Positions 22,719 to 46,570 of a DNA stretch of 64,000 nt are shown here, in pieces (the first letter of the stretch is position 1; every line of letters begins with the position of its first letter). Location of the stretch: the IMG/VR virus record IMGVR_UViG_3300042291_000957, positions 26,420 through 90,419 of that record, one strand, 5' to 3'. The notes below the pieces were generated by a model, which searched no databases, was not told the origin of the DNA, and saw only the letters and a program-made list of their open reading frames with translations. The position numbers and the translations under genes are program-made. Source of the stretch: a virus.

Positions 22719-23479
22719 TTTCTTTCTATGTCCTCTTCTACACAGTTTTCACCATATTGAATTTCAATAACTCGCAAGGGTTGATCTGTCTCATTACATA
22801 ACTTATGCCATTGAGTTTTATTGATATGTATGTGTTGATGCTGTGTATATTCACCTAATAAATCCATGTCTGAGCTTTGATCTATTGTATAGACTGTAGC
22901 TATGCCTTCAGCTACAAACCAATGTTCTGCACGGTCTTGGTGACGTTGCATACTGAGACAAGTTTTAGGATTGACTGTTAGTTCTTTGAGTTTAACATGA
23001 TTGCCAACTTCATGTAGTACTCGATAGTACCCCCAGGCTCTACCAGTTTTAGGTGCTTTCCATTCTTGAAGAATCCACGAACTAGAATTCTTTTTATCTT
23101 CACCACCCACACCAAACACAAATTCTAGGTTGTTGTCTTGAATATCCATTTCTGGAATATTCTTATCTGTTCTATCGCCACCGTTGGCAAAGATGATTGT
23201 ATCTTCTGGAAAATCTTTTCTAACTTCTAGTATAGCACCTTTTGATGAGCCGTCGGCATCGTCAAAATCATAAACAATACCGTCTACGCATTTAATATTG
23301 TCTACGATATATGATCGTTCAGAAAAAGGCATAAAGGCTGCACCTTTTTTACGAACAAGCCATTCATCGGAATTGAGCCCTACAAGGAGTATGTCTCCTA
23401 GTTCTTTGGCTGCTTGGAAGTAGGCAATGTGCCCGGAATGTAGAGGATCAAATCCACCTGTGACTAATATTATTTTCAT
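22715..23479 (-). CDS. HxGH nucleotidyltransferase fused to a C-terminal cupin (type II mannose-6-phosphate isomerase-like)
   Basis: TGGFDPLHSGH, GLNSD, FANGGDR and NSSS, followed by R.WGYY, LSMQRH..RAEHW and EIQYG..C.E.DIER. Confidence 0.85.
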   Translation of the reverse strand: MKIILVTGGFDPLHSGHIAYFQAAKELGDILLVGLNSDEWLVRKKGAAFMPFSERSYIVDNIKCVDGIVYDFDDADGSSKGAILEVRKDFPEDTIIFANGGDRTDKNIPEMDIQDNNLEFVFGVGGEDKKNSSSWILQEWKAPKTGRAWGYYRVLHEVGNHVKLKELTVNPKTCLSMQRHQDRAEHWFVAEGIATVYTIDQSSDMDLLGEYTQHQHIHINKTQWHKLCNETDQPLRVIEIQYGENCVEEDIERK

Positions 23480-23512
23480 GCAGATATTTATCTGCGTATA
23501 TAATGAACTAGT

Positions 23513-23968
23513 TCAAAGAGTGGCGTCTTCTAACCCGGCTGTGCGTAGTTTTACAATATTGCTTAATTGCCACTGCTTTATATCTAGAGCCTTGATAATG
23601 CCCAACCATTTATTTCTAAGTAGGGCGAAATCGTTAATAATCTTTTCGAAATCTACAACGTCAGCTTCGCCTTCGACAAACTTTTCACAGTCTCTACTGC
23701 TTAACTGACGTTGATAGGTTTCAAGATACTTGCGAAAGTGTTGACTACGAAGTCTACGAAGTTCAATATTGAGATATTCTAAAATACCTTCAATTTCTTG
23801 AAGTTGGTTAAATCGATTTTCTACAATGCCGGGCATCTGCGCAGAGGCTTTTTCAATGTTACCTGCTACACGGACATCTTGTTTTGCATGAATTAATTCA
23901 GCTTCATAATAGGCCACAGCATCCGGAATATTTGAAATATCTTTAGAAACACGATCGTACCAATTCAT
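23513..23968 (-). CDS. uvsY: Recombination mediator UvsY-like
   Basis: Helical 151-aa protein (KYLE.Y.R.L..RD.EK.VEGE; GIIKALD.KQWQL.NIVKLR.AG) next to UvsX. Confidence 0.75.
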   Translation of the reverse strand: MNWYDRVSKDISNIPDAVAYYEAELIHAKQDVRVAGNIEKASAQMPGIVENRFNQLQEIEGILEYLNIELRRLRSQHFRKYLETYQRQLSSRDCEKFVEGEADVVDFEKIINDFALLRNKWLGIIKALDIKQWQLSNIVKLRTAGLEDATL

Positions 23969-24199
23969 TTATTCCTCATCTTCGTAGCTATCTTCATCCT
24001 CAATTTCTTCACCATCGATGACATAGTTAATTGCATCATCAAGATATGAGTCAACTCCTTTGAGACTGTCAAGCACACTTTCTTTAATACCATAATCCAT
24101 TAGTGTATTAACAAAATCTGCTGCCACATCTTTGCGATGTTTCTCTGGTATGTGTTCTAATACCAATGTCCAAATATCTGCAATTAAATCTTCTTTCAT
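23969..24199 (-). CDS. Hypothetical acidic protein
   Basis: Coupled between uvsX and uvsY; GGAGG RBS. Confidence 0.7.
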   Translation of the reverse strand: MKEDLIADIWTLVLEHIPEKHRKDVAADFVNTLMDYGIKESVLDSLKGVDSYLDDAINYVIDGEEIEDEDSYEDEE

Positions 24200-25328: not shown

Positions 25329-25339
25329 GTTTAGTCTAA

Positions 25340-26335
25340 TTACTTTTGACGATTGCGAATCATGGCAAGGATGTCTTGCGCACGACTTGCACTTTCACCA
25401 GTAGGTGCTGCTGGTGCTGCCTTCACTGCCGGAGTAGCAGGTTCTTCCCAAGGAGCATCTTCTTCAACTGCTGAAGCGGCTACTGGAGCGGCCACTGCGG
25501 CACGTGGTGCGGCAGATTTATTAGGATCACCTGTTGCTTGACCCATTCCAGCTGGTTTGAAGTACTGACCCCAACGTTCCATATCATATGCTTCACCGTC
25601 AACTGACGCTTCAAACATTTCCTTCATAACCTTAAGCTCAACATCTGTTGGCTTCTTAGGTAGGAAGTCGCTTAGATTGTGTAATCCAAACTGTTCAATT
25701 GCTGCCTTGTCGGCGTCGGAAATAGCACGTTCACGACGGCTCCACTTTGATGTAGAGTAGTCAGCAAATCCGCCTTTGCTGGTCTTAGCAATACGGAAGT
25801 CAACACCACGCATAAAGTCAGTTGGCAATTCTTCCAACTCTGGATCCATCAATGCTGAACGGATAATTTGATAGATTTGAGGACCGATGATAAATCTACG
25901 AATTGGATTTTCTGGTGTCTTATCTTCCTTAATAGGATCTTCAACAACAAAGCCTTGGAAAATGTACGAACGCTTTTTCCAATACTTACGCCCCATTTCT
26001 TCTAGAGCTTTGTCTTTAAACCAGCCACGAACTTCTGTAAGAATTGGACAGGCCGTACCGTCATTGTACATTTCTACACAAGGAACCTGTACCTGCACAG
26101 CTCGTGAATCTGTTTCGCCTTTGATACCTGCAAACGGCAATTTGATCATTGCACGTTCTACCCAAAAGAATGTATTGGCAGAGTTGCCGTCTGGTAGTAA
26201 GCGAATTACTGCTTCCTTACCTTCCTGCATATTCCAATGTGGGTAAATTGCGTTGTCTCCACCGCCGGTGGATTGTCCTGTGGACTTTGATTGTGCTTCT
26301 TGAAGTTTCGCACGAATTTCTGCTAATGTTGCCAT
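25340..26335 (-). CDS. Single-stranded DNA-binding protein, gp32-like
   Basis: AVIRLLP, CPI, YWKKR, G.DF...KT.KGG.ADY..S.W and acidic/Ala-Pro tail; next to uvsX. Confidence 0.85.
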   Translation of the reverse strand: MATLAEIRAKLQEAQSKSTGQSTGGGDNAIYPHWNMQEGKEAVIRLLPDGNSANTFFWVERAMIKLPFAGIKGETDSRAVQVQVPCVEMYNDGTACPILTEVRGWFKDKALEEMGRKYWKKRSYIFQGFVVEDPIKEDKTPENPIRRFIIGPQIYQIIRSALMDPELEELPTDFMRGVDFRIAKTSKGGFADYSTSKWSRRERAISDADKAAIEQFGLHNLSDFLPKKPTDVELKVMKEMFEASVDGEAYDMERWGQYFKPAGMGQATGDPNKSAAPRAAVAAPVAASAVEEDAPWEEPATPAVKAAPAAPTGESASRAQDILAMIRNRQK

Positions 26336-26391
26336 TTTAAATGCCTCCTATGTTATGCCTAAAATGTTTATATGCCTTATGCACATATGTT

Positions 26392-26420
26392 ATTATGCGC
26401 TTTTTATTTAGCAAGGTCAA
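26392..26420 (-). promoter_or_regulatory. Sigma70 promoter TTGACC-N17-CATAAT with an embedded TAAATA late motif
   Basis: Minus strand reads TTGACCttgcTAAATAaaaagcgCATAAT. Confidence 0.7.
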
Positions 26421-27002: not shown

Positions 27003-28997
27003 TTAATAGCCTGCAAGTTCTCTAATACGAGCAAGTTCTGCAATCTGCGGATCTTGCTGTTGTGGAGCCATTCTTTCTACCATTTTGCGAGCAACCATTT
27101 CTGCCTGTTCGCCAAACTTCTTGCCTACCATAATAGCAACGCCTTCTGGGCCTTTAGGGAATGTGCCTGATTCACGATCATAAAATGTATGAACAAATTC
27201 TGCTAACTCTTGAACATTCATTTTAGACTGCATGCCTCGTTGTGCTAATGCTTTAGCACTATCTTGACCTGTTCGGTTCGGATTGTTGGGCTTTTTAAAA
27301 TTTGACTTTTCATCATCTGCATCCCAAGGAGGAGAATTGTCATCGTCGTCTTTTTTAGACGGTTCAGTGTCAGCTTCTCCCATACCTAGTTCTTGTTTTC
27401 TACGTGCTAGACCAGCGGAGCTAGTTGGCGATTTTGTTTTCTCGTCATCTATATCCTTGGTGCTCATTTTCCAATCATCGTCGCCTTTGGCTTTTCTCAT
27501 AAAAGCAGGAACATCACTTTTATTTGGACCATCGGATCCTTCTTGTGGTGCTTCTGGCGCTGTTATATCACCCCCTTGGTCAGTCGCCGGCGCTTCACCT
27601 TCTGGCGGAACAAAATCTCCAAAGTCTAGTTGTTCTAGAGTATCCGGCGCATTTTGTTCTAACCATTCTTTTACTAGACCCCTTACACAACTGTCCGGGT
27701 CTTGTTTTGATTGTTCTTTTATTTCTTGAAATAATTGTGGATCTTCAATTATGCCTTTTAGGCTTTCAATAGCATTTGTGCCATCGACACCTGCTGGAAA
27801 ATGTTGTCCTACTAATTCTTGTAATTCTTTTATGGCTGCTGATTTTTCTTCTTCATCTTCGCTGGAAATTGCCGAAGCTTCTCCTAGCCCCATTGCCCAA
27901 GTTTCAAATCTAGCAAATGGATCGTTGTAATTTACACTAACCTCGTTTTCTACTACGTCTGGTTGTGTCATTTCGACTATGTCGTCATAGCCTATTTCGC
28001 TTTCTTTCATTAGTCTATATAGAACAGGAAATACTGATTTGATATCTTCTTTGAAATTTCTTACTGTGAATTGATCTGTGTACTGTTCTACTACGTCTTG
28101 TGGAATCTCTACGGGTTCCATTGCCTGGAAATTTTCTTTGTATGCCTCGTAATGACCTTGTTTGGCCAGTGCTTTGATTTGTTCTCTTAGACCATTTAGA
28201 TACTGCGACGATCTTTCTACAATAGAGTTGTTCATTGAATTCATTAGGTCATTGCGCACGACATAACTTTCAAAACTTTTTAGTTGCGCAATTTCTTCAC
28301 TCATACCTACAATACTTTTTCCAAGGTCATCGTAAGGTAATCCACCATTGGCCACGTGACGTTGCATTGCACGAGCGCCAGCTAGATGGATAAAGGGATA
28401 TTTGAATCTTTCACCGTCTTGATTTTCCACAAACAATGCGCCGATGTTTCTTGTTCTACTACCAGGGGCAGTGTCGTCCATAACTGCTTTGCTGTGTTTG
28501 ATGATTAGACGTGTGTCCATTAATTTTTGGAAGCTGACGTTCTTGCTGCCATACATTGCGCTTTCGCTCATAATTGATTCTCCAACAGTGGGGGATGTAT
28601 TTGGTTGTGATTGTTTGGGCGTATTATACTGACTTAGAAATGCAAAGTCTCTACGATCTAAATTGTCTTTGGCAATATCTCTAGTATCAAAGCTCATCAA
28701 TCTTCTTTTTGCAAATAACCGTAATTCTTTTAGAAATCCATACCATCCTTCTTTCTGGGTGGTGTCCATGCTTTCTGTAATACCTGTACTAAAATAAACT
28801 TTGATAGAATTATTTTCAGCAAGACTAATACTTACATGGCCAATTGCCGCTTCACCGTCTTTGTAATCAAAATCAAAGAATCTTGCTTCTTCGGGATTGA
28901 TAGTGATAGCACCGGTATCATTTCCTAATTTTAGGCCAGAAAATCTACTACGTATTTTGTAGAATAGATCAGTGGCAATGTTGTTTGTTGCATCCAT
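27003..28997 (-). CDS. Large hypothetical late protein, possibly head-associated
   Basis: TAAATA 5 nt before ATG 28997; acidic low-complexity linker; C-terminus ELARIRELAGY; follows the terminase gene. Confidence 0.6.
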   Translation of the reverse strand: MDATNNIATDLFYKIRSRFSGLKLGNDTGAITINPEEARFFDFDYKDGEAAIGHVSISLAENNSIKVYFSTGITESMDTTQKEGWYGFLKELRLFAKRRLMSFDTRDIAKDNLDRRDFAFLSQYNTPKQSQPNTSPTVGESIMSESAMYGSKNVSFQKLMDTRLIIKHSKAVMDDTAPGSRTRNIGALFVENQDGERFKYPFIHLAGARAMQRHVANGGLPYDDLGKSIVGMSEEIAQLKSFESYVVRNDLMNSMNNSIVERSSQYLNGLREQIKALAKQGHYEAYKENFQAMEPVEIPQDVVEQYTDQFTVRNFKEDIKSVFPVLYRLMKESEIGYDDIVEMTQPDVVENEVSVNYNDPFARFETWAMGLGEASAISSEDEEEKSAAIKELQELVGQHFPAGVDGTNAIESLKGIIEDPQLFQEIKEQSKQDPDSCVRGLVKEWLEQNAPDTLEQLDFGDFVPPEGEAPATDQGGDITAPEAPQEGSDGPNKSDVPAFMRKAKGDDDWKMSTKDIDDEKTKSPTSSAGLARRKQELGMGEADTEPSKKDDDDNSPPWDADDEKSNFKKPNNPNRTGQDSAKALAQRGMQSKMNVQELAEFVHTFYDRESGTFPKGPEGVAIMVGKKFGEQAEMVARKMVERMAPQQQDPQIAELARIRELAGY

Positions 28998-29008
28998 AGT
29001 TATATTTA

Positions 29009-30598
29009 TCAAAACCCGCTACTGACAAAGATCGGCATTGGCATTTGATCTTCTGTGAGTTTTTCTGTCATTTTTTCGTAGATTTTAGGATCCCAATCGC
29101 TGAGAATAGTGGCCATACGCAGTATTAGTAATGTTGCACTCACAAGATCGTCGTGTTCTCCGGTCTTGGCTCCAAATCCTACTCCGTGAGCTACAAAAGT
29201 TTTTAATTCGGAAATCAAAGGCTTACTATTGATCTTCATCTTTTGTGTTTCTAGCATATGCTTGAGCTGACTGCAGGTGGTTATTTTTGTACGGTGTGTA
29301 GTGTTAAATCCCTTACGGAATTTTCGAACATGACCTTTACGTATAGGCTCACTTAGGAACAGTCCAGGAAAGTTTTCTTCACCTATATTATTGATCACAA
29401 TTAATGCAGCTTCACCTAAGGTGTTATTTTCTACACTGTAGTAGATCTGCGAACTTGCACCACCTAGTTCTGTGCTTCTGTCTTGAATATATTTGCAGAC
29501 TTCTCTTAGGTGTTTTACTTGAGTTTGTATAGGAGTTAGATTGTGACGCCACTCGGCTACCTGAATCATACTAGGCATTTCAAACACCTGGATGGCAGCA
29601 TAGTCTCCACCAGTACCAAGACTGGGATCTAATGATACTAGATAGGTGCATCTAGAATCAATTTCTTTATACCAACGTGTTTGGCCCATGGTCATTATGG
29701 GATCGACACCTTTAAGTTCTGCAAGTTTAACAGCATTGATCAGTGTTTCATCAAAGATTAAAAATTCGCAATCAAATTCTCTACGAAATCGCTCGTCCCC
29801 TATTTTGGCTCGTTCTGTTTGTGCCCAGGCATCGTCGCGATCAGGGTGTTCATTCCAGTGTGCAAAAAAACTGTGAAATCCGTTGGCTCCTAATGGAGTT
29901 TCATTGCCAAATTCATCAAAACGTTTTTGAGCTTCTGTCCAAATAAGTGCAAACTGATCTTCGTCTGAGTTTGGAGTTGATGTAATAATACATTTACCAC
30001 CAGTTGACAGGGTTGGTGATAATGCAGTCCAAAACTCTTTGGCTTTTTCTGGGGGTTGTACAAATGCAAACTCATCGCAATAGATCAATGAAAGAGATTT
30101 ACCACGACCTGTATTTTCTGTAGTTGTCACTGCCTGTATACGAGCGCCGTTGTCATATTCGATGGTATTTCTGTTATACGAATAAACGCCAGCACGAATA
30201 AAGTCTGGCAAGTTTTCATAGCCGAATCGATAACGATTCATAATATCCTGCGCACCTTCATATTTGTGAGCGGCAATAAGCACTTGTGCTTCTGGAACAA
30301 ACTGTGTGTACCATAATAGGTATCCTGTGGCACAGGTAGTTTTGCCCATCTGACGAGGTAGCATACCAATAGACTGTTTATAGTTGTGGTATGATTGAAT
30401 CAATCGTTCTTGATACTCGTAGGGTACAAAAGGAATTGATCCTCGTACAGGATGTTGAATCTTTAAAAAGTTTTTACAAAAATACAGCGGACCGTTAACA
30501 GGATCCATACAGGCTTCTAGATGCTTGACTTCCTCTAACGTGTATCGTTGAGGTGCGTGTGCTTTCTTAATTAAATTACCGTCTAGTGATTTTGCCAT
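29009..30598 (-). CDS. Terminase large subunit (gp17-like)
   Basis: YQ, PRQMGKTT (Walker A), GRG, YCDEFAF (Walker B), ITSTPN, F.REF.CEF, DPSLG.GGDY and HDDLV motifs. Confidence 0.95.
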   Translation of the reverse strand: MAKSLDGNLIKKAHAPQRYTLEEVKHLEACMDPVNGPLYFCKNFLKIQHPVRGSIPFVPYEYQERLIQSYHNYKQSIGMLPRQMGKTTCATGYLLWYTQFVPEAQVLIAAHKYEGAQDIMNRYRFGYENLPDFIRAGVYSYNRNTIEYDNGARIQAVTTTENTGRGKSLSLIYCDEFAFVQPPEKAKEFWTALSPTLSTGGKCIITSTPNSDEDQFALIWTEAQKRFDEFGNETPLGANGFHSFFAHWNEHPDRDDAWAQTERAKIGDERFRREFDCEFLIFDETLINAVKLAELKGVDPIMTMGQTRWYKEIDSRCTYLVSLDPSLGTGGDYAAIQVFEMPSMIQVAEWRHNLTPIQTQVKHLREVCKYIQDRSTELGGASSQIYYSVENNTLGEAALIVINNIGEENFPGLFLSEPIRKGHVRKFRKGFNTTHRTKITTCSQLKHMLETQKMKINSKPLISELKTFVAHGVGFGAKTGEHDDLVSATLLILRMATILSDWDPKIYEKMTEKLTEDQMPMPIFVSSGF

Positions 30599-30612
30599 AC
30601 TGTTATTTACTG

Positions 30613-30640
30613 AAAAAAATAGGCTCCGAAGAGCCTATTT
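30613..30640 (-). terminator. Rho-independent terminator with cUUCGg tetraloop
   Basis: AAATAGGCTC-TTCG-GAGCCTATTT followed by TTTT. Confidence 0.88.
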
Positions 30641-31021: not shown

Positions 31022-31897
31022 TTAATCTTTTAATCTACCATCAGCTTCAGCTGACTTTAACATTGCTGCACGGTCTGGATAGCTACCACGCTTGACATCT
31101 TTGGCAGCAGCCTTTTCACCTTTAGTAGGATTCTTAACGTGCTTTAATGCGTCAAACTTTTCAGATTTAGCTTCTGCTAAACGATTACGTAGTTCGTTTC
31201 TAATAGAAGTTCTTAAATCAACAGCTTCAACACGTTGCATAGGGTTGTCGCCGCCTGCTACTTTAGGGTATGTGCCTTTAGGTCCGTTCATACCGCCAGC
31301 AAGTTTGTTCACCATGTAGTCAATGTCTTTGTATTTTTCTTCCGGCTCGTTGGCATATTCATTTTTCTTTTCGTCATCTTTTTCCATGCCGCGATCATCG
31401 TCTTGATCATCTTTATCGCTTGAGACTTTGTCAATGTCATTGTCGTCAGGCATATTGTCAGAGTCCATGTCGCTTGGGCCGCCCATATTATCTGCATCTG
31501 GCTCATCGTGTGGTTTGTCCATGTCTAGATCTGGCAACATTTTTAATGGTCCAGCATCTAGGTTACCGAGATCACCTATAGCAGATATGCTAGGTCCTGG
31601 AGGAGTCAACGATGGCATTGCAGTCATGGTAGGCATTGGCATCATCTTGGATGGCTGGTTAATCATATCTGGATTAACTTTAGTCATAAGTTTCATTAAA
31701 CTTTCAATGTTGTCCATACCTTGTGCATTAAGATTCACACTCATACTAGGATGACTTGGCGGTGGTGTTTGACTAGTCACCGACGGTGGCATACTCATAG
31801 GCATAGGTGCATCACCGCAGGCTTCTGTAGCAGGCATTGATTGTGTAGTTGGTTGATCCAAGTCTCTCATCTTGGCTAACAGTTGATTAAAGTCCAT
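31022..31897 (-). CDS. Hypothetical low-complexity (Met/Pro/Asp-rich) protein
   Basis: Coupled ORF in the late operon; probably disordered. Confidence 0.65.
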   Translation of the reverse strand: MDFNQLLAKMRDLDQPTTQSMPATEACGDAPMPMSMPPSVTSQTPPPSHPSMSVNLNAQGMDNIESLMKLMTKVNPDMINQPSKMMPMPTMTAMPSLTPPGPSISAIGDLGNLDAGPLKMLPDLDMDKPHDEPDADNMGGPSDMDSDNMPDDNDIDKVSSDKDDQDDDRGMEKDDEKKNEYANEPEEKYKDIDYMVNKLAGGMNGPKGTYPKVAGGDNPMQRVEAVDLRTSIRNELRNRLAEAKSEKFDALKHVKNPTKGEKAAAKDVKRGSYPDRAAMLKSAEADGRLKD

Positions 31898-32466
31898 TAT
31901 TTACTCCCCATTGCGCTTTTAAGGCCTAACTTGTCGGTCTTGCCTTTGGGCAGCTTATATTCTGTTGGCCCAGTTTGATCTTTTTTACGTTGTTTTGCAG
32001 TTTTTTCAAGGTCTTTTAAAAAGCCTTTGTTGAAGTCATCACCAAAATAGTCTTTGTGTTTGGCATTTGTATTTTCTTTGTAGTTGGAATCTGTTAACAG
32101 TGCTTGTCCTGATGGTTCGTTGTCTAGCAGAACTTGATCAGCTTCTGTTGGTTCACTACCACCTCGTACACGAAAGCTGGATTCGTCGAGTCCCAGTGCC
32201 TTGACATCATTAGTTATTTCTGGTCCTGTAATAGGATATTCACAAATTACTTCGAACACAGTTACTTCACAATTTTTCATTGTGGGGAAGTCCAGAGGCA
32301 ATGCCTGTATTGGTGTGGTCTTGATTTTTTCTAACTTGATACATTTGCAGCGATCTAGTGCTGTCTTCAAGTTTTCTTGAAAAGCCTCGGGCAATTCTCC
32401 AGCCACTTTGACTTTAAAGTTATAGATTTTTTTGCTTTCGGCAAGATATTCTGTAAATGGTTTCAT
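31897..32466 (-). CDS. Hypothetical late protein
   Basis: N-terminus MKPFTEYLAES resembles T4-type head-targeting leaders; TAAATA 5 nt before ATG. Confidence 0.6.
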   Translation of the reverse strand: MKPFTEYLAESKKIYNFKVKVAGELPEAFQENLKTALDRCKCIKLEKIKTTPIQALPLDFPTMKNCEVTVFEVICEYPITGPEITNDVKALGLDESSFRVRGGSEPTEADQVLLDNEPSGQALLTDSNYKENTNAKHKDYFGDDFNKGFLKDLEKTAKQRKKDQTGPTEYKLPKGKTDKLGLKSAMGSK

Positions 32467-32474
32467 GTTAGTAT

Positions 32475-32963: not shown

Positions 32964-32974
32964 AGCAATACTTA

Positions 32975-34878: not shown

Positions 34879-34908
34879 AAAAAAAGCCCGATATATTCGG
34901 GCTTTTTT
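34879..34908. terminator. Intrinsic terminator after tail tube gene (bidirectional architecture)
   Basis: AAAAAAGCCCGA-TATAT-TCGGGCTTTTTT. Confidence 0.85.
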
Positions 34909-35560: not shown

Positions 35561-35590
35561 TGTCTTATGCTCCGATATTGTATTTATTCA

Positions 35591-38500
35591 TTAAATTTCA
35601 CCTGTGTTCTTGAGACGCAATGGTATGTAAATAAATTCAACGGCCTTGGTTGGCTCAATGGCAACATCTACATATAATTCATTACGATCAATTCTACTTG
35701 GTGTGTTGTTGGTTTCGTCGCATACTACTGCAAAGTCATAGATAGCTCTTAGACCCACTAGTTCCAGCAACAAACTTTCTACAGCTTGTTTGATCTCGTC
35801 ACGGGTGATAGAATCATTTGGCTCAAAGATATATGGGCGAGCTAGTTTTGTTAGTTGACTACGTAGATATACAACTAAACGAGCTACGTTAATACGATCC
35901 AGTGCTGATGCATTTCTTGCACGAGTCTTTTGACCATAAGCTACCAGTCCTGTGCCAACAAAGAACGGAATTGGATTAACCTTTAGATCATACAGTGTAT
36001 CTCTTTGACCGTTGTTTAAAGCAACGCTTTGGAATTCACCGGTCAACGAATCAATGTATCCCACTGCTGTGGCATTAGTAATACCACCACGGCGTGTACC
36101 TGCTGGGGCAAACCAAGGAAAGCTCACTTGGTCGCTTAGAGCAATAGTTCTTAGCATCATGTGACTGGCTGGAACCACAGCATTTGCGCCTGTAAGATCA
36201 GTGGTAAATCCATTTGGATAGTAAACCGCTGCATATTCGTCATAGGTAACAATACCATTGTCTCCGTTGTCCAGTGCTAGATTAGCATTGGTACCCCAGG
36301 TAGTTAGACTTGTTGCATCACTCTTTAGACGCAATGGTGTATCACCGACCACAAAAGCTGTGACCTTGCGATCCAGATTCAAGTTGATTAGATTGCTGAG
36401 TGCTTCTGGATATCCAGGGCAAGCAATTAGGTTGAAGTTTCTGCGTTCTTCATCACGAGCTTCTTCGCTGGTGTCAATGGCGCTCTTCAATGCAGCAACC
36501 ACAGCTGATCTCTGGGCCTTGCGACCAAAGCTGCCTGAACCATCTTCATTGTTAGGGCTAGCAGTGGTCCAACGATCTGGCCAGTATGCTTCCATACTTG
36601 GTGATCCTGATTGTCTTTCGTTGTCTGCTGTAGTATCAATATAACCATCGTTGTATTTCTTGACGTTTCCACCGCTTCTACGTAGGTTCCACAGCAACAT
36701 GCCTTTGGGATATAGATCTGGATCCGGTGCATCTGGATCTAAAAAGTTGTTGGTCAACAAGTCTTTGATTGATCCAGTAGGCGCAGCCGTAGTCGAGCCT
36801 CCAGTTGTACCTGCACGAGCATCTGCAAATAACACACCTTCTTCTGTGGTTTGATCGGTTTTGTCAACCAGAACCCATTTTAGTGCAAGTTTTGTGCCTG
36901 CGTCAGGATTGAATTTGTATATGCTTGGGAAATTTTCTAGATCTGCTGTGCTGATCCAAATATCACCGCTGACCAGCGCAGTGCCGTCAGTTTGTGTTTC
37001 AGGCATTGTTGCGGATACAAGTGGACCTTCTGGATCAGTGCCAGTGTATCCTGTGAAGTTTTGATAGCCCACCCAGGTTGTGCCATTGTGAATCATTAGA
37101 TCTACATCGCCAAAGGCAGGATTGTACCATAGTTGTCCGTCTGCTGGCTCTTCTAATGGAGCATCCGGAGTGGCAGCAAACACATCACCAACCAATGGAA
37201 TCCATAAGGAAGCCAAATAACCTTCTTGTGCTCCTGTGGCCAAGCCACCTGACAATGCGTAGAAATTACTGGTGCCAGCACCTGTTTCTAGGTTGTAGGC
37301 TGTAAACAATGTACTAACAGCAGTACCTGTGACATCAGTTAGTCTGATGTCGCCACCGGTCTTGTGTGTGATCACTAATTCGTTGCTGGTAGTAACACTA
37401 GCAACTACGTTGTTTGTGATAGCATCGCCAGCTGAATCAGTGTAACTAGCAGCGTTAATTAATCCTGCGATTGTAAACGCATCGTCTGCTGTGCCTGCTG
37501 CTGTGAATGTAAATGAAGCTGCTGTGCTCAGTGCAGTATCTCCAACAATCGACTGTTTGATTGTGAAGGTTCTTGCTACTGCACTCAGTGTGCCTGTGGT
37601 AATAATTTTAGATTTGATTGCAGTTGTGCCGCTGGCTGCTCTTTTAAATATTCTAAAAGTAGTAGTGGCCAATGTTTCATCTGGTGCGTCAAAACCATTT
37701 ACTGCTCCAGTAGTAGCAGAATATGATCCTGCGTGTTCACTAGCATTTGTTTGCACAAATAATGCATCCTTAGGAAGATTTGCGCCACCACCGGATTTAT
37801 CTAAAAAGTACAAGGCAGAGTGCGGAGTTGCGTACAAAGGTGCTTCATTGGCTACCCAAGAATCAGTACTTTGATTGTAGCGTTTTACTCTCCAACGAGA
37901 TCCATTGTTTGGTTCGGTGGTTTTAAGCCATACAGAACCTGTAGGACGAGCATTTACAGTAGATCCAAAATCTGATCTCTTAAACAGTGGGATGCTGGTG
38001 TGTGGTTGTTGGGCCAAAGCTGGGCACATGTATGTACCAGCAGCAATGTTTAATAGGCCAGCGCCGACGCCTAGTGTAGTTCCACTGAGTACAATGCCAC
38101 CAGTTCCACCACCAATTGCTGTAGAGTCACCGCCTGTAGCAGTAGAAGTACCATCACTGTATAGATATAATCTGTTGTTGCTGGCAACGGCTGTAATACC
38201 GCTGCCATTCATCTTTGTATTGATGTCTGAAACACAAGAAGCTAGACTAACACCCGGTGTAATAGAAACATCGTTGATAACCAATGTGCCTGATAATGCA
38301 CCTACCGCTGCTGAACTAAATGCTGTAGGGTGACTAGAAGTCCATTCAGGACTACCAACTAGTACCCAAGTACCAGCTGTGATACCAGCTGTGGCATTGC
38401 CTGCACTCTTGTAGTATATTCTTACCAGTTCATCGTCAGCTAAAAATGTTCCATCGCCTGCGGCTGTTTGAAACACCACAGCATAATCACCGATTGTGCC

Positions 38501-39058
38501 TACTGATGTTTTAGGAGCATTACTGTTGATATTGTCAAGATCAGCATCTGTGAGTACCAAAGGAGTTTTAGCAGTAAATTTTTGACCGCTGTCGGCTAAT
38601 GCTAAACCGTTCCATTCGTTGATACCCCAAGTGGTGGTTTGTGTGTCTACCCACCACTTGCCATCAGCTGGATCCGCTCCCGGTGCATCTGTTTGACCTT
38701 CTAGTTCATTTAGGTTAATGTCTGCACGTAGGATGAATGCAGAATTTGAAACGCCCAACAAGCTGTAAGCAGCTAGTAGACCGTATTCGTTTCTTTCGCC
38801 ACCGTGTATAGGACTAGCCGATACTGTCTTTTCAAAGAACGGTGAACCAAATGTGTCAACAAGTTCTCGTTGACTGGTCATTTTGAATACTTTGCCTGCA
38901 TTGGCTGCAGTGGTACCTGAAGCTGTGCCTGTGCCAGCTCCGTTTATTTTGTTTTCAGCAGTGGCTACAACAATTAACGGAACCGTACCTGGTTCAGCTG
39001 GAGTATAAAAACTCTCGTCAATTACTTGTACTTCTACGCCTGGTGATGTTAGTGCCAT
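35591..39058 (-). CDS. Tail sheath protein (gp18-like) with large insertion domains
   Basis: SPGVEVQVIDES N-terminus; PWFAPAG.RRG, LY...VNPI, GQKT, ALDRINVARL, FEPND, CDETNNTP..IDRNEL and P.KAVEFIYIP motifs. Confidence 0.95.
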   Translation of the reverse strand: MALTSPGVEVQVIDESFYTPAEPGTVPLIVVATAENKINGAGTGTASGTTAANAGKVFKMTSQRELVDTFGSPFFEKTVSASPIHGGERNEYGLLAAYSLLGVSNSAFILRADINLNELEGQTDAPGADPADGKWWVDTQTTTWGINEWNGLALADSGQKFTAKTPLVLTDADLDNINSNAPKTSVGTIGDYAVVFQTAAGDGTFLADDELVRIYYKSAGNATAGITAGTWVLVGSPEWTSSHPTAFSSAAVGALSGTLVINDVSITPGVSLASCVSDINTKMNGSGITAVASNNRLYLYSDGTSTATGGDSTAIGGGTGGIVLSGTTLGVGAGLLNIAAGTYMCPALAQQPHTSIPLFKRSDFGSTVNARPTGSVWLKTTEPNNGSRWRVKRYNQSTDSWVANEAPLYATPHSALYFLDKSGGGANLPKDALFVQTNASEHAGSYSATTGAVNGFDAPDETLATTTFRIFKRAASGTTAIKSKIITTGTLSAVARTFTIKQSIVGDTALSTAASFTFTAAGTADDAFTIAGLINAASYTDSAGDAITNNVVASVTTSNELVITHKTGGDIRLTDVTGTAVSTLFTAYNLETGAGTSNFYALSGGLATGAQEGYLASLWIPLVGDVFAATPDAPLEEPADGQLWYNPAFGDVDLMIHNGTTWVGYQNFTGYTGTDPEGPLVSATMPETQTDGTALVSGDIWISTADLENFPSIYKFNPDAGTKLALKWVLVDKTDQTTEEGVLFADARAGTTGGSTTAAPTGSIKDLLTNNFLDPDAPDPDLYPKGMLLWNLRRSGGNVKKYNDGYIDTTADNERQSGSPSMEAYWPDRWTTASPNNEDGSGSFGRKAQRSAVVAALKSAIDTSEEARDEERRNFNLIACPGYPEALSNLINLNLDRKVTAFVVGDTPLRLKSDATSLTTWGTNANLALDNGDNGIVTYDEYAAVYYPNGFTTDLTGANAVVPASHMMLRTIALSDQVSFPWFAPAGTRRGGITNATAVGYIDSLTGEFQSVALNNGQRDTLYDLKVNPIPFFVGTGLVAYGQKTRARNASALDRINVARLVVYLRSQLTKLARPYIFEPNDSITRDEIKQAVESLLLELVGLRAIYDFAVVCDETNNTPSRIDRNELYVDVAIEPTKAVEFIYIPLRLKNTGEI

Positions 39059-39166
39059 TCGACTGTCTCCTAGGGTTAAATCAATGTACTATTATTTAGC
39101 GGCATCATTAAAAAACACCAGGATATACAATATGGAAAAAGGGGCTGAAAAGGTGTAAATATGTTT

Positions 39167-39502
39167 ATGAGACCTCTTTGCAAGTGCGGACAACGACCCC
39201 GTGCCGTTAACTATAAAAAAAACGACAAGATCTATTATAGATCATTGTGCGAAATCTGCATGGCCAACGGTCTAGGCTTTGGCATTCCTAGATGGCATCG
39301 ATCCGGGTATCGAATAAAAAATCAATGTGACAAATGTGGGTTTCGATCAGCCCACAAAGAAGTTTTTAGAGTATTTCACATAGACGGCAATCTAGATCAC
39401 TGTCGTCACAGCAATTTAAAAACTGTATGTTCGAACTGTGCTCAAATACTAGGCAAAGAAGGAATCACTTGGCGACAGGGCGATCTTGTCGCTGACTACT
39501 AG
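39167..39502 (+). CDS. Small Zn-binding HNH-like protein
   Basis: CKCG, C..C, CDKCGF and HIDGN......NL.TVCSNC motifs. ATG 39167 lies 5 nt after TAAATA (track start 39161). Confidence 0.7.
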   Translation: MRPLCKCGQRPRAVNYKKNDKIYYRSLCEICMANGLGFGIPRWHRSGYRIKNQCDKCGFRSAHKEVFRVFHIDGNLDHCRHSNLKTVCSNCAQILGKEGITWRQGDLVADY

Positions 39503-40105: not shown

Positions 40106-40154
40106 AATATTCTCCAACTGTATAAAGTATACAGGAGAATATTGCTGCGGTCAA
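40106..40154 (-). promoter_or_regulatory. Sigma70 promoter TTGACC-N17-TATACT overlapping an RBS-sequestering hairpin
   Basis: -35 at 40149-40154, -10 at 40126-40131; inverted repeat AATATTCTCC/GGAGAATATT spanning 40106-40143. Confidence 0.75.
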
Positions 40155-40909
40155 CCTATAATAAAAGTATATCCTTGACCACCTGGTACTAATTTCATCA
40201 AATCGTCTGTTAGTTTTTCAATTTCAGCTGTGGCTTCTGCTTTCATTGCTGCCCCGTTTAGACTGCTTCCACCCTGAGGTCCAGCAATTTGAGCAAACTT
40301 TTCACGGGCTTGACCCAGCATCATCTTACAGTTGGCCAAACTATAGTCTTTGATCCATTGTCCTGCATAGGTATCGTCGATAATAGCAAAATCTGGTTTG
40401 GTATTATAGACCCATAACATTACTTCTTCATCGCCTCGAGGACGTTGTTGGATCATTATCTTGCGACTTTGTGGTTGCCAGGTAAAATTAATAAAAGATC
40501 CAAACATCTTGCCTACTAATTCTTGATAACCGCTGAATAATTCATAGGTTAGTAGGCCGCCCATATTCGTTGAACTTAGCAAATAGGTGTTGGTATAGGC
40601 CATGTTGAACGGCTCAAATACTGTGCCGCCTGTGCCGTTGCCACTTCTTGACCCAACTGATCTGCGAAATATCTGTCGCACTTGTTGTACTTCTTTGGGC
40701 AAAATATATTCTTGCTGATTTTCTCTCAGCGTTAAAAACGCATAACTTTCTTCAACGGCATTATCTGAACGTTGTCGAAACACGCCTAATGCTCTATTAA
40801 GTGCAGTTTCGTAGTGTACGGGATCTAGCTCTACGTCAATCATGCCGTCGCCTAGCATGGCTTTGCAGTAACTAAAAACTTCTTGCTTGGATTGGTCTAT
40901 TTGGCTCAT
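40151..40909 (-). CDS. Neck protein (gp13-like)
   Basis: LG...IDVELD, WIKDY.LA..K..LG..R.KF...GP.GG..LNG motifs; ATG 40909. Confidence 0.85.
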   Translation of the reverse strand: MSQIDQSKQEVFSYCKAMLGDGMIDVELDPVHYETALNRALGVFRQRSDNAVEESYAFLTLRENQQEYILPKEVQQVRQIFRRSVGSRSGNGTGGTVFEPFNMAYTNTYLLSSTNMGGLLTYELFSGYQELVGKMFGSFINFTWQPQSRKIMIQQRPRGDEEVMLWVYNTKPDFAIIDDTYAGQWIKDYSLANCKMMLGQAREKFAQIAGPQGGSSLNGAAMKAEATAEIEKLTDDLMKLVPGGQGYTFIIG

Positions 40910-40942
40910 ACAACTATTTATCGTAGCGGTAAATATATGACT

Positions 40943-42334
40943 ATGCCAAGACTGAGCCTTTACCGCCCTGAAAAGGGCAATGATTATAAATTTATAGATA
41001 AAAATATCTGGGAAATGTTCCAGGTTGGTGGTACTGATGTGTTTATACATCGATATCTAGGTCCCGGATCTACTGGGAATACTGCCTCCCCTACACAACC
41101 CGTATATAATACCAGCGATCCTACACAGATCCAAGACCTGCTGTTTTTAGAAAATAGAGATCGCAAGTATGATCCTGATATCTATGTCATGCGAGGAGTA
41201 TACAGTCTTCAAGATCTAGATTTTAATCTCAGCCAATTTGGATTATTCTTACAAAACGATACTGTTTTTATTACATTTCACATCAACGATACTATTGAAA
41301 AACTAGGTCGTAAATTGATCAGTGGGGATGTCATTGAACTGCCACATCTCAAAGACGATCATGCTCTCAATGATCTTCAATTTGCTCTTAAAAGATTCTA
41401 TGTGATTGAAGAAGTAAACCGAGCTGCGGAAGGATTCTCAGTTACTTGGTACCCGCATCTATATCGTGCCAAATGTAAACCATTAGTTGATAGTCAAGAA
41501 TTCAAAGAAATACTAGATCAGGTTGCTAACAAAGATGCAATGGTTGGCACCTACAACTCTGCTGTAACCTATTATCCAGGTGATGTTGTTACTGGGTTGG
41601 ATGGAAAAAATTACACGGTGCTACAAGAAGTCACAGGAGTTGCACCTCCTAACGCTACCTATTATGAACTAGCCGACAGCTTACGAAACATAATGAGCAC
41701 CTACGAAAAAGAAATGCAGATCACCCAGGCAGTTCTTGATCAAGCTGAAACAGATGCTCCAAGGAGCGGTTCGGACACCACGCAGTTTTACACGCTGACC
41801 GTGGACGAAGATAAATTACCGGTACTGGTCAGCGCAGATAACAGCCTATTAGATGCTAGCTTAGAAACTCAGGCCACTGATGAAGCAGGCAATCTCTTGT
41901 TTAATACTGACGGTACTCCTGTATATGTAGGATCCACTGCTGCTACCGCTTTACTATCATCAGAAGTATCTGGGTATAACGGATACCTTGTTGGCGATGG
42001 TGTTCCACCAAACGGTGCGCCATTCACAGCTGGCATAGCCTTTCCTCTAGCTCCTGCAGATGGTCAATTCTGTCTACGTAAAGATTATTTCCCTTATAGA
42101 TTGTTTAGATACAACGGATCAAGATGGGTCAAAGTCGAAGACAAGGTACGAATGACCATGAATAACCTAGGACCAAGTGATGTTGGGGTTGGTGATCAAT
42201 TTGAAGGCAAGGATGTTCGCCAGACACAAAAAGCTGGATTTATCAACAATACAAATACAGACATAATAAATGGCAACACTGTGAAAGAAAGACAGAGTCT
42301 CAGCAAGGCTCTCAGACCAGAGGCAGATGAATAA
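40943..42334 (+). CDS. Neck protein (gp14-like) with C-terminal extension
   Basis: DLLFLENRDRKY, LSQFGLFL..D and GDVIELPHL motifs; lies between gp13 and gp15. Confidence 0.7.
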   Translation: MPRLSLYRPEKGNDYKFIDKNIWEMFQVGGTDVFIHRYLGPGSTGNTASPTQPVYNTSDPTQIQDLLFLENRDRKYDPDIYVMRGVYSLQDLDFNLSQFGLFLQNDTVFITFHINDTIEKLGRKLISGDVIELPHLKDDHALNDLQFALKRFYVIEEVNRAAEGFSVTWYPHLYRAKCKPLVDSQEFKEILDQVANKDAMVGTYNSAVTYYPGDVVTGLDGKNYTVLQEVTGVAPPNATYYELADSLRNIMSTYEKEMQITQAVLDQAETDAPRSGSDTTQFYTLTVDEDKLPVLVSADNSLLDASLETQATDEAGNLLFNTDGTPVYVGSTAATALLSSEVSGYNGYLVGDGVPPNGAPFTAGIAFPLAPADGQFCLRKDYFPYRLFRYNGSRWVKVEDKVRMTMNNLGPSDVGVGDQFEGKDVRQTQKAGFINNTNTDIINGNTVKERQSLSKALRPEADE

Positions 42335-43812: not shown

Positions 43813-43823
43813 TAAGTATCTAG

Positions 43824-44222
43824 ATGCAACAACGTGCCGGCTTATTGTTTCTAAGTAAAAACACCAAGAGAATTCTTCTTATTTTAGAAGATGCCAAATG
43901 GACTGTGCCTACTTTTGTGAGAAACAGCAGTCTATTAGAAGATGCCGAACCGTTGTTAAATAATTTCTCAGTGGGTAAAATTTTACCCATAGAATTGTAT
44001 CTCAGTGAGGACCGTGGATTTGAATATGGAACATATATCTGTCTAGTTGATGATGAATTTCTTACAACATCAGCTGCTACTATATGTTGGGCTGCATTGA
44101 ATCACTTGCCCAAACAATTGCATACCGGTTTAAAAAACACATTGAGCAATACCATAATTCGTACAAAAATTGAAACTATATTGGAGTTAGAAAATGTCAA
44201 GCATACTGCAAAAATCTACTAG
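43824..44222 (+). CDS. Nudix-fold-like protein lacking the Nudix box
   Basis: AGLLFL....RILL....W..P and W.....LP..LH.GL flank the position where GX5EX7REUXEEXG is expected but absent. Confidence 0.5.
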   Translation: MQQRAGLLFLSKNTKRILLILEDAKWTVPTFVRNSSLLEDAEPLLNNFSVGKILPIELYLSEDRGFEYGTYICLVDDEFLTTSAATICWAALNHLPKQLHTGLKNTLSNTIIRTKIETILELENVKHTAKIY

Positions 44223-44472
44223 ATTTATCAAAGACTGTGAAAGATATGAATCAGTAATAGCCACAATGCCAGCGGGCGATGTAAAAAATGAAACTGTTCA
44301 ATTGTTACAAAAATTAACCTATAGCATTAAAAAACTTGATAACATGCATCTAGAAATGATATACTCTAGACAGTTGCCAACTATGGGCAACGAAATGAAA
44401 GACGAAATATCAGATTTGCGAAAAAAATTAGAAACTAGAATTAGAGACTGGTCGCAAGCACAGAAAAATTAA
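44194..44472 (+). CDS. Hypothetical helical protein (92 aa)
   Basis: GGAG RBS; overlaps the upstream ORF. Confidence 0.6.
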   Translation: MSSILQKSTRFIKDCERYESVIATMPAGDVKNETVQLLQKLTYSIKKLDNMHLEMIYSRQLPTMGNEMKDEISDLRKKLETRIRDWSQAQKN

Positions 44473-46553
44473 ATACTGCTAAAGTTTTTAATGAAAATAG
44501 TACCAATCATAGCAGCATGAACACTGCACTGATATCTGTAGCTACCACTAATTGAATCTGGAATCTTCCAATACAGTGTACCAGATGTTTGCCCTTGAGC
44601 AGATGCACCTGTAGTCACAACGCCTCCTGTGGTTACGTGTACTAACCCAGTGTTGTAATTTGCACCTGCGCCGTCCTGTATCAAAAAAGGATGACCTGCC
44701 ACATTAAGATTGAAAGCTATAGTGGTGCCATTTATGGCATATACTGTAGGATCGTCAGTAGTGCCATATTGATCAAATCTGTATGCAGTAGCACCGTTAT
44801 TAGTTACATTAAGTCTTGTTATGGCCGGTAGATAGAACTGATCCACCGTTAGCCCAGCAGCATCCGTCAAGTCAGTAAATGCTGAGGCACCTGCTGAGGC
44901 CGTATTGGTGATTGTAACGGTATCTGTGCTGGCATCTGTGGTGATTGAGATACCGGTGCCTGCGGCTATAGTAAGAGTGTCAGTGGCTGAATCAGCAACA
45001 ACTGAACTTTGCCCTGCTACCGCTATAGTGGCAAAACTATCTGATGCAGTTCCGCCGCCGGCGGCAGCAATGGTAATAGTGTCTGTACCAGCATTGGTAG
45101 TTATAGTTATATTTGAACCTGCTACCAAAGTCAGGGTATCTGTGGCTGAATCCGCTACCACTGAAGTTTGTCCGGCCACTGCTATTGTAGCAAAACTGTC
45201 TGATGATGAACCGCCTGAAACTGTAGCCCAAGAATTATCCCCACGGAGATAGGTACTAGCACTGGCTGTTCCTGTGGCTCCTATACGAGCTATAGGTACA
45301 GTACCTGAAGTTAACTGAGTGGCATTGAGTGCTGTTAAATTAACACCCGAACTTGCAGGTAATGTAGCTGGAAATCTTGCATCAGGTACAGTACCTGAAG
45401 TTAACTGAGTGGCATTGAGTGCTGTTAAATTAACACCCGAACTTGCAGGTAATGTAGCTGGAAATCTTGCATCAGGTACAGTACCTGAAGTTAATTCAGT
45501 GGCATTTAAAGCGGTTATCAAACTGCCGTCACCGCTGAAACTTGTAGCAGTTAATAACCCTACATCTGATATACTGGCACTACTAACCTGTATGATTGTG
45601 CCTGTTGTGCCATCGTAGCGCACAATCCTGTTGTCCACATAGCCGCCGCCTGCACTCAATACATCGCCTGATCCAGATCCTGACGCTCCTGGAGGACCAA
45701 TCTCTCCCTGAGGTCCAGGAACCCCCACAGCAGAAGTAGCCTGTCTTGAGCCGTCTGCAAATACAATTTCATTGCCTACCACAACATCTGATTCAAAATT
45801 CACTGCTGGGGTTACTGTAATAGCTGTGCTATCTGTGCTGTCTATGGTGTTAGCCACAAAGGTGATGTTGCCTGTGCTGGCAGTACCTGTGATAGTAATG
45901 GTATCTGTACTAGCGTTGGTAGTTAGTGTAATACCAGTACCAGCAACTAGTGTCAGTGTGTCTGCGGTTGTATCTGCTATCACTGAACTTTGTCCTGCGA
46001 TAGCAATAGTTGCAAATGTATTGGGCAGACTGCTTTCTGCAGCCACAGGTACCCAAGCGCCGGCATGTGCATAATACAATTTGCCTGTATCATGCACATG
46101 AGCTACCATACCGTGATAATCTATAGGGGACACTTCATCTGTAAGATCTGCTAGGGTGTCCCAATGGAATCTGATGCGATTTTTTTGTCCTGAGATATCT
46201 ATCACACCCGATAACATCAACGTATTAGTGGAATCATCTAACCAAGTCAATGCAGCAAGATCGTTGACTTGGGAACCATTTGACGGATAATATGCTATTT
46301 TTCCAGAGACGCCTGACTGCACACCGCCACTGAATCCTGCAGAATTTGCTTTGGCTAAAAAATCTGTATTAGATATATTGGTTAAATCTGCTTTTGCAAG
46401 ATTTACACCGCTAGCTGTGGCTCCATCATATAGTCTCAGGGTATTAGCTGTTCGATCATAAAAAATTTCACCTCGATTTCCGGATCTTCTGTTAAGAAAA
46501 TCTGTTTCTCTAGGTATAATTCTTATTGCGTCAAGTACGGGTATCTTTGCCAT
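44469..46553 (-). CDS. Fibre-like virion protein with repeats, a short collagen segment and a C-terminal cupredoxin-like domain
   Basis: Thr/Ala/Gly/Ser-rich; GVPGPQGEIGPPG; three FATIA.AGQ.SV.AD...DTLT repeats; GHPF...YRYQCSVHAAMIG. Confidence 0.72.
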   Translation of the reverse strand: MAKIPVLDAIRIIPRETDFLNRRSGNRGEIFYDRTANTLRLYDGATASGVNLAKADLTNISNTDFLAKANSAGFSGGVQSGVSGKIAYYPSNGSQVNDLAALTWLDDSTNTLMLSGVIDISGQKNRIRFHWDTLADLTDEVSPIDYHGMVAHVHDTGKLYYAHAGAWVPVAAESSLPNTFATIAIAGQSSVIADTTADTLTLVAGTGITLTTNASTDTITITGTASTGNITFVANTIDSTDSTAITVTPAVNFESDVVVGNEIVFADGSRQATSAVGVPGPQGEIGPPGASGSGSGDVLSAGGGYVDNRIVRYDGTTGTIIQVSSASISDVGLLTATSFSGDGSLITALNATELTSGTVPDARFPATLPASSGVNLTALNATQLTSGTVPDARFPATLPASSGVNLTALNATQLTSGTVPIARIGATGTASASTYLRGDNSWATVSGGSSSDSFATIAVAGQTSVVADSATDTLTLVAGSNITITTNAGTDTITIAAAGGGTASDSFATIAVAGQSSVVADSATDTLTIAAGTGISITTDASTDTVTITNTASAGASAFTDLTDAAGLTVDQFYLPAITRLNVTNNGATAYRFDQYGTTDDPTVYAINGTTIAFNLNVAGHPFLIQDGAGANYNTGLVHVTTGGVVTTGASAQGQTSGTLYWKIPDSISGSYRYQCSVHAAMIGTIFIKNFSSI
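45294..45494. repeat. Perfect 90-bp tandem repeat (~2.2 copies) encoding a 30-aa unit
   Basis: 45301-45390 is identical to 45391-45480; unit TALNATQLTSGTVPDARFPATLPASSGVNL. Confidence 0.95.
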
Positions 46554-46570
46554 ATTATTATTTATTCAAA

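Follow-up and report, generated by a model that had tools for sequence, protein, structure and literature searches.

Genes whose start codons abut a TAAATA box

The window analysed here is a 64,000-nucleotide (nt) stretch of viral DNA corresponding to bases 26420-90419 of the 90,419-bp IMG/VR contig IMGVR_UViG_3300042291_000957 (40% G+C; CheckV completeness 25%). It carries a block of phage structural genes, where the hexamer TAAATA, or its variant TAAGTA (together TAARTA), stands 5 nt before the ATG of ten genes. The original prediction had taken these boxes for late promoters generating messenger RNAs (mRNAs) devoid of a 5' leader; the ten sites are all present, and the observation of a box 5 nt before the ATG is confirmed. 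The contig is a fragment of a ~360-kb freshwater phage related to the Pseudomonas jumbo phage PA5oct. Its TerL protein is 53% identical to that of PA5oct and 44-51% identical to those of Phosso, Atu_ph07 and CBB, and its structural genes occur in the same order as in PA5oct (adaptor, dNMP kinase, sheath, tube, tube paralogue, TerL). The relatives used for comparison are at least 80 IMG/VR contigs encoding a TerL 86-100% identical to the present one (loci L003-L082), and four long sequences, G001 (353 kb, 98% complete), G002 (364 kb, 100% complete), G003 and G004. Conservation was assessed by locating the orthologous starts of eight genes in 80 related contigs and counting the distinct upstream sequences; d is the number of nucleotides between the box and the ATG.

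The TerL gene (29009-30598, minus strand; phrog_36964, E 1.9e-120) begins with TAAATA-acagt-ATG (30596-30609), which places its predicted transcription start (+1) at 30598. Upstream lies an intrinsic terminator (30610-30640, minus strand), comprising a 10-bp stem (30617-30640) and a T-run (30610-30616), which ends 3 nt before the box. In the relatives, the TerL box is invariant and is followed by nine different 5-nt spacers, while the terminator stem shows compensatory changes (GGCTCTTCGGAGCC / GCATCCTTCGGGGTGC / GGGCCTACGGGCCC). Similarly, the gene of a 360-amino-acid (aa) tail-tube paralogue (33780-34862, minus strand; phrog_4542) begins with TAAATA-attat-ATG (34860-34873; predicted +1 at 34862) behind a terminator hairpin (34879-34902, minus strand; GCCCGA-atatat-TCGGGC followed by seven T), which ends 5 nt before the box and also has stem variants with compensatory changes in the relatives. 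Its orthologues have d=5 in 30 of 31 unique sequences, and d=4 in the other one.

Two other genes of the ten have divergent neighbours. A 111-aa gene of unknown function (39167-39502, plus strand), divergent from the sheath gene, starts with TAAATA-tgttt-ATG (39156-39169), a layout found with d=5 in 26/26 unique sequences harbouring 17 different spacers; the earlier in-frame ATG (39161) is absent from the orthologues. The gene of the gp13-like head-tail adaptor (40151-40909, minus strand; phrog_211, E 4.9e-33) starts with TAAATA-gttgt-ATG (40907-40920) and d=5 is kept in 9/9 orthologues. Its box backs onto that of a divergent gene encoding a 463-aa virion protein (40943-42334, plus strand; phrog_11591), which has a 7-nt gap (TAAATA-tatgact-ATG, 40930-40945), so that the two start codons are only 33 nt apart; this d=7 layout also occurs in G002. 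Because of the terminators just upstream (the TerL and 34862 genes start 14-16 nt after them) or of the divergent neighbours, any promoter of the TerL, 34862, 40909 or 39167 gene has to be located a few bases at most from the ATG, and no element other than the box is conserved there.

At four of the ten sites, the preceding gene ends immediately before or within the box: three show TGA-TAA tandem stops, and at the fourth the stop is the TAA of the box itself. The gene of a 664-aa virion protein (27003-28997, minus strand; phrog_13484) begins with TAAATA-taact-ATG (28995-29008) directly after the TGA stop of TerL, and its orthologues have d=5 in 25 sequences and d=4 in two. The gene of a 189-aa virion protein (31897-32466, minus strand) begins with TAAATA-ctaac-ATG (32464-32477), the TAA of which terminates the upstream gene; d=5 occurs in 29/29 unique sequences with 13 different spacers. 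Among the other genes of the set, a 254-aa nucleotidyltransferase-like gene (22715-23479, minus strand; phrog_7878), which heads a block of glycan genes, begins with TAAATA-tctgc-ATG (23477-23490) and has d=5 in 17 of 18 unique sequences. The gene of a 694-aa protein resembling baseplate wedge or fibre-connector proteins (44469-46553, minus strand; phrog_677, E 1.8e-47) begins with TAAATA-ataat-ATG (46551-46564); no N-terminal match to it was found in G002.

The sites with the variant box TAAGTA are weaker than had been proposed. That of a 162-aa gene with a weak match to small terminases (32475-32963, minus strand; TAAGTA-ttgct-ATG, 32961-32974) is conserved: TAAGTA is invariant in 27 unique sequences, with d=5 in eight and d=4 in 19. 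The invariant G of this box lies in non-coding DNA, and a merely weak promoter would be expected to drift between A and G. The second one precedes a 132-aa gene (43824-44222, plus strand; TAAGTA-tctag-ATG, 43813-43826, after a TGA stop), which is a doubtful member of the set, as its orthologue in G002 (56% identity; the one relative tested) has no box before the ATG. A third TAAGTA, at 12482-12487, belongs to the leader-type sites described below and is likewise missing from G002.

Enrichment, spacing and conservation of the box

The window contains 13 matches to TAARTA-N5-ATG, as compared with 3.03 +/- 1.60 in 100 dinucleotide shuffles, none of which reached 13. The three matches besides the ten genes (614, 52734 and 59701) open short frames (6-25 codons) or overlap the box of a gene preceded by a Shine-Dalgarno (SD) sequence. 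A sharp peak at 5 nt had been anticipated, and the spacing histogram of the whole 90-kb contig indeed shows 15 matches at d=5 and 0-6 at each of the other values between 0 and 40; 12 of these 15 matches open an open reading frame (ORF) of at least 69 codons. In an unbiased scan of all hexamers and offsets before ORF-opening ATGs, TAAATA at spacing 5 ranked first (9 against 0.08 expected, i.e. 109-fold), followed by the SD hexamer AAGGAG at spacing 6. An ORF-opening ATG occurs at d=4-6 of 12 of the 61 TAAATA sites of the contig (0.84 expected), and of 26 of the 145 sites of G002 (1.9 expected). The total of 145 sites in G002 is itself well below the 327 expected from a second-order model, which indicates that the hexamer is avoided elsewhere. 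Could the layout nevertheless be a chance product of AT-rich DNA and of TAA stops lying beside starts? In its favour are the 40% G+C of the contig, the occasional use of the box's TAA as a stop codon, and the three of the 13 matches in the window that are attributable to chance. This explanation is already refuted by the shuffles, by the 109-fold enrichment, by the conservation of the box beside varying spacers and by the fact that no permutation of the letters of the hexamer combines so few sites with such a peak; we grant it practically no credence.

The annotated ATGs are the true starts: the N-termini of the relatives align from there, and the DNA further upstream is occupied by a terminator hairpin, a divergent gene or a different reading frame; the gp13-like protein read from 40909, for instance, has 252 aa as compared with 250 aa in PA5oct. 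Though GTG and TTG were allowed in the search, the fused start (the start codon abutted by a box) is ATG in 11/11 cases in the contig and in 22/22 in G002. The 5-nt gaps of the fused genes hold no GGAG, and these genes have no SD. The base preceding the ATG is a pyrimidine in 11/12 fused starts of the contig and 20/23 of G002, which fits the usual Y(-1)R(+1) context of transcription start sites.

Among the 186 distinct upstream sequences of the eight genes, 158 have the box at d=5, 25 have it at d=4, three lack it, and no other spacing occurs. The hexamer is invariant within each of the eight gene sets, which comprise 6-17 different spacers per gene. The length of the gap is under strong purifying selection while the sequence of the spacer drifts. 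In G002, 23 sense TAAATA lie 4-7 nt before the ATG of a gene (for called genes, seven at d=4, 13 at d=5 and two at d=6, plus the d=7 sites). The 8-45-nt bin contains 57 more sites, nearly all of them at 16-45 nt and mostly accompanied by GGAG-like sites; only three occur at 8-15 nt. This bimodal spacing fits a promoter, as a message would begin at the AUG or else have a leader long enough to accommodate an SD. The proposal of a spacing of exactly 5 nt is accordingly retained as to the mode, which is 5, and has to be widened to a tail of 4-7 nt.

These spacing data also bear on the view that the boxes are real but minor late promoters, most of the protein being made from read-through messages by translational coupling, or that transcription starts a few bases off the ATG and yields short non-functional leaders. 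The tight packing of the genes, with many overlapping stop/start pairs, speaks for this view, as do the variation of the gap between 4 and 7 nt and the lack of a terminator before six of the ten sites. It is, however, hard to reconcile with the gap of 4-5 nt in 183 of the 186 variants, since such selection would be pointless for a minor promoter. Furthermore, the 8-15-nt spacings are avoided, the TerL and 34862 genes lie just behind terminators, and the 40909 and 39167 genes have no co-directional gene upstream. We therefore consider this view unlikely, and favour the reading in which the abutting box is the main promoter of most of the fused genes.

A TerL gene can also do without this layout: in five of the loci L003-L082, it has neither the terminator nor the box and is preceded by an SD-type leader (AATAAGGATACGACCCC-ATG), showing that the clade has swapped between two modes of expression at this one gene.

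A putative T4-type late promoter, its predicted sigma factor and sigma70-type counterparts

Late transcription of phage T4 is a textbook system, and the box described here resembles its promoter in several respects. It is a -10-like element without a -35 element, no conserved upstream element being found in the consensus of the orthologous upstream sequences, and its core TAAATA is invariant, as a shortened variant RTAAATA. It precedes the genes of the sheath, the tube, the tube paralogue, TerL, the gp13-like adaptor, baseplate or fibre proteins and other virion proteins. The T4 late box TATAAATA occupies positions -13 to -6, its outermost base being referred to as 'A(-13)' (PMC2988020), and in the P23 scaffold of the cryo-EM work, 5 nt separate the box from +1 (PMC7892883). 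With this geometry, the arithmetic of the original prediction holds, as a gap of 5 nt makes the A of the ATG the +1 position (PMC2988020, PMC7892883).

A look for a gp55-like sigma factor elsewhere in the genome had been suggested. The present fragment has none; all four near-complete relatives (G001-G004) encode one, and so does PA5oct (phrog_12791, E ~1e-80; phrog_234, E ~1e-25). The G002 sigma, encoded at L092:1426-2316, matches T4 gp55 in BLASTP (E 4e-10) and keeps five of the seven residues of the T4 base-flipping pocket (N13, R57, F86, Y97 and T99, with H95 replaced by F and L54 by Y; pocket residues taken from PMC7892883). These sigmas are larger than T4 gp55 (~290 aa versus 185 aa). 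About 3.4 kb from the gp55-like gene, G002 carries a 144-aa GIY-YIG-like ORF (106.3-106.8 kb; L115:1387-1821, minus strand); its match to the gp33 family phrog_254 (E 0.03-0.04) was rejected as spurious.

The fused layout is not limited to the TAAATA box. Scanning G002 for sigma70-type promoters (TTGACA-N16-18-TATAAT, with 10 or more of the 12 positions matching), we found the -10 hexamer 5 nt from an ORF-opening ATG in four cases, 6 nt in six and 7 nt in two, an empty range at 11-15 nt and the main cluster at 22-34 nt. Such fused sigma70-type promoters number 12 in G002 (2.1 expected) and four in the contig (1.0 expected). Near-consensus promoters of this kind lie, with gaps of 6-7 nt, before the ATGs at contig positions 11351 (plus strand), 26300 (minus) and 7388 (plus), all three outside the window, and at window position 5415 (minus); one of them reads TTGACA-17-TATAAT-aaacac-ATG. 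The 338-aa gene at contig position 26300 keeps its 6-nt gap in the G002 orthologue, where the spacer and the -10 hexamer differ. In the structural block itself (28-47 kb), there is no excess of conventional promoters, a scan for the sigma70-like consensus giving 59 matches as compared with 50.4±7.6 in shuffles. Since -7 is the last position of the sigma70 -10 hexamer and -6 that of the T4 box, a sigma70 mode of d=6, one base beyond that of TAAATA, is as predicted. Each of the two promoter classes would thus put the A of the ATG on its own predicted +1, which we regard as the best in-silico support for leaderless transcripts. It follows from the sigma70-type fusions that leaderless expression would not be specific to late genes.

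From these lines of evidence, we propose that TAAATA is the core of the T4-type late -10 box of this clade, which would be read by the host RNA polymerase equipped with the gp55-like sigma. Roughly a quarter to a third of these promoters would have the box 5 nt (range 4-7) before the ATG, such that transcription would start on the A of the ATG, or within a base or two of it, and produce an mRNA with neither a 5' leader nor an SD. Translation of these messages would take the leaderless route, from a 5'-terminal AUG. The other late promoters would lie at least 16 nt upstream of a gene endowed with a GGAG-type site, and the sigma70-type fusions would make leaderless expression a general option in the phage. 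We give a probability of about 70% to the statement that most of the fused genes are transcribed from the abutting box so that the 5' end falls on the AUG or no more than two bases from it. The notion of leaderless late mRNAs is hence kept as regards the T4-type box, its geometry and the absence of an SD, and dropped as regards its restriction to late genes.

Several observations weigh against this proposal. First, the leading TA of the T4 box is not conserved here, position -12 being an A in ~60% of the sites, and TAAGTA has a G at -8, where T4 gp55 reads an A. Second, gp55 was not found on the 25%-complete fragment, and gp33 was not found in the relatives by sequence search, which a diverged analogue could have escaped. 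As for gp45, there is one marginal match to phrog_223 (E 0.0055), by a 245-aa ORF of G001 that lies at L113:1420-2157 and belongs to phrog_12062, a family of unknown function; this clamp candidate has no match in PDB or Pfam. Third, T4, PA5oct, CBB, Atu_ph07 and Phosso are devoid of the fused layout, and experiments on these phages do not bear on it. Fourth, four metatranscriptome sets (Logan contigs of relatives, 90-95% identity) cover parts of the region in a way that leaves transcript starts unresolvable, and one RNA contig crosses the TerL terminator and box. Fifth, at the four sites abutting a stop codon, expression could alternatively result from coupling on a read-through mRNA.

The last two points can also be accommodated by supposing that UAAAUA-N5-AUG is an RNA signal, which would recruit ribosomes independently of an SD or operate in termination-reinitiation within polycistronic late messages; the 5-nt gap does resemble the distance between an SD and the ATG (AAGGAG at 5-6 nt). 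However, TAAATA also occurs 16-45 nt before genes led by an SD, where it cannot be a ribosome site, as well as after terminators and between divergent genes, where a promoter is required. Moreover, pairing of the box with the anti-SD does not extend past UAA, TAAATA forms the core of the T4 late box and the clade encodes gp55, and an RNA signal would not explain the sigma70-type fusions at their own spacing. We regard an RNA signal as very unlikely, and retain the promoter reading in what follows.

The metatranscriptomic material comes from 12 lake or freshwater runs, which contain small shares of the region. Depth figures and the positions at which RNA contigs end (near 34851, 32945, 32434 and 35579) were considered and set aside as not usable as evidence.

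Related phages, leader-type boxes and other features of the region

The layout found here would unite two known kinds of elements, T4-type late promoters and leaderless phage mRNAs. The number of TAAATA-N5-ATG matches exceeds that of the reversed pattern used as a control in the long relatives (20 versus 5 in G001, 16 versus 3 in G003 and 12 versus 3 in G004). The corresponding numbers are 15 versus 12 in PA5oct, 15 versus 9 in Atu_ph07, 4 versus 10 in CBB, 3 versus 2 in Phosso and 10 versus 5 in T4, where the full box TATAAATA-N3-7-ATG gives 3 versus 4. In HTVC008M, a cultured myophage of SAR11 (Pelagibacter), there are 14 versus 4 pattern matches, not screened for gene starts. T4 thus shares with the present clade the core TAAATA, the lack of a -35 element, the location before structural genes, a sigma of the gp55 family and the 5-nt distance from the box to +1; it differs in that its box does not abut start codons, and in its gp33 co-activator and gp45 clamp, of which the former was not found here and the latter has one marginal candidate. 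The jumbo phages CBB, GAP32 and PA5oct belong to the same broad group (TerL 44-53% identical) and similarly have the box before structural genes and a gp55-like sigma. ATAAATA was proposed as a late promoter in the Rak2-like phages CBB and GAP32, and gp33 and gp45 likewise went undetected in CBB (PMC5259590). In contrast to the present clade, the box of PA5oct (GATAAATA) and CBB lies 20-30 nt upstream, with an SD leader; the PA5oct paper gives sigma70-like promoters only, with no late promoters or leaderless data (PMC7318152).

Leaderless transcripts are systematic, late genes included, in the Thermus phage Lalka27a (bioRxiv 10.64898/2026.04.20.719267), a source that also attributes such transcripts to the Thermus phage phiYS40, and -10 boxes adjoin ORFs in Deinococcus-Thermus (PMC12340547). 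The likeness lies in a -10 element held at a constant distance of a few bases from the start codon, whose initiator A (or G) forms the 5' end of the mRNA. The differences are the promoters, the sigma factors and the host phylum, in which leaderless mRNA is the norm; the 5' ends were mapped in the Thermus phages and are predicted here. Furthermore, the present clade uses only ATG at fused starts, and these concern a minority of genes, the rest having canonical GGAG sites. HTVC008M, a 147-kb T4-like marine phage and not a jumbo phage, is alike in its enrichment of TAAATA-N5-ATG. Our literature search found no paper on T4-type late boxes fused to start codons, nor on the layout of HTVC008M.

Whether the freshwater jumbo clade, together with other aquatic T4-like phages (HTVC008M being the one checked), has rewired its sigma70- and gp55-type promoters so that the transcription start is the AUG is a generalization that we judge as likely to be right as wrong. 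Leaderless mRNAs are, to our knowledge, regarded as rare in proteobacteria and their phages. If the proposal is correct, leaderless mRNA would be a regular and tunable tier of expression beside the SD-led messages, and leaderless translation a normal tier of the control of phage gene dosage; proteobacterium-like hosts would translate 5'-AUG mRNAs efficiently, or the phage would make them do so. Gene callers that expect an SD would misplace starts in these phages, and the box would pinpoint promoter and start codon alike, following the clean rule of a spacing that is either fused or at least 16 nt. HTVC008M would offer a cultured system with the same layout.

A second class of genes, with a box and an SD-like leader, had been proposed as well, and was borne out at six genes, each leader containing a GGAG- or AAGG-like sequence. 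The sheath gene (35591-39058, minus strand; phrog_10581) has TAAATA at 39093-39098 and a 34-nt gap with AGGAGA (39059-39098), and its box and SD are kept in the relatives with a variable spacing; transcription is predicted to start near 39087. The tail tube gene (34925-35560, minus strand; phrog_4542, E 6e-52) has TAAATA at 35581-35586 and a 20-nt gap with CGGAGC (35561-35586), the predicted start being near 35575. A fibre-like gene (59369-59689, minus strand) is preceded by two overlapping boxes (59705-59710 and 59709-59714), with gaps of 15 and 19 nt and TGGAGA (59690-59714). The gene 54982-55968 (minus strand) has TAAATA at 55999-56004, 30 nt upstream (55969-56004), and the virion protein-like gene 3-662 (minus strand) has TAAATA at 683-688, 20 nt upstream (663-688), both with AAAGG in the leader; the latter arrangement is kept in G002. 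The sixth, 12120-12464 (minus strand), has TAAGTA at 12482-12487 and a 17-nt gap with TAAGGA (12465-12487); it is doubtful as a promoter, its G002 orthologue (86% identity) having no box.

The idea that low-copy proteins come from leaderless messages and high-copy proteins from SD leaders would fit TerL, the adaptor and the tube paralogue (fused) versus the sheath, the tube and the single-stranded DNA-binding protein (SSB), which have a strong SD. The other genes with fused promoters in G002 nearly all belong to PHROGs of unknown function.

Some TAAATA copies are not functional as boxes, as seen from two candidates that were rejected as promoters: the one at 52545-52550, 11 nt before an ATG, provides the stop of the preceding gene and has GGAGG behind it, and that at 31898-31903 (GGGGAG-TAAATA-ATG) combines an SD and a stop. 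Between the divergent genes starting at 17215 and 17245, two boxes of opposite strands are interleaved (17227-17244; 17227-17232 on the plus strand and 17239-17244 on the minus strand), with gaps of 23 and 12 nt, neither of which contains an SD.

A 5.8-kb contig assigned to a metagenome-assembled genome (MAG) of Polynucleobacter sp. (L130; JBBAKF010000119.1) carries a TerL gene (82% identical) behind a terminator-TAAATA-N5-ATG arrangement (2960-3003). This contig is the sole lead to a host, and a weak hint. In the Polynucleobacter MAG, TATAAT-N6-ATG shows no clear enrichment (25 versus 18).

The gene at 25340-26335, considered as a capsid gene, was rejected as such; it encodes a gp32-like SSB. 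Upstream of it (26336-26420, minus strand) lies a sigma70-like promoter (TTGACC-17-CATAAT), followed by a leader of ~55 nt containing three AGGCATA repeats and then a strong AGGAGG. The repeats are kept in the relatives and, by analogy with T4 gene 32, may constitute an autoregulatory operator.

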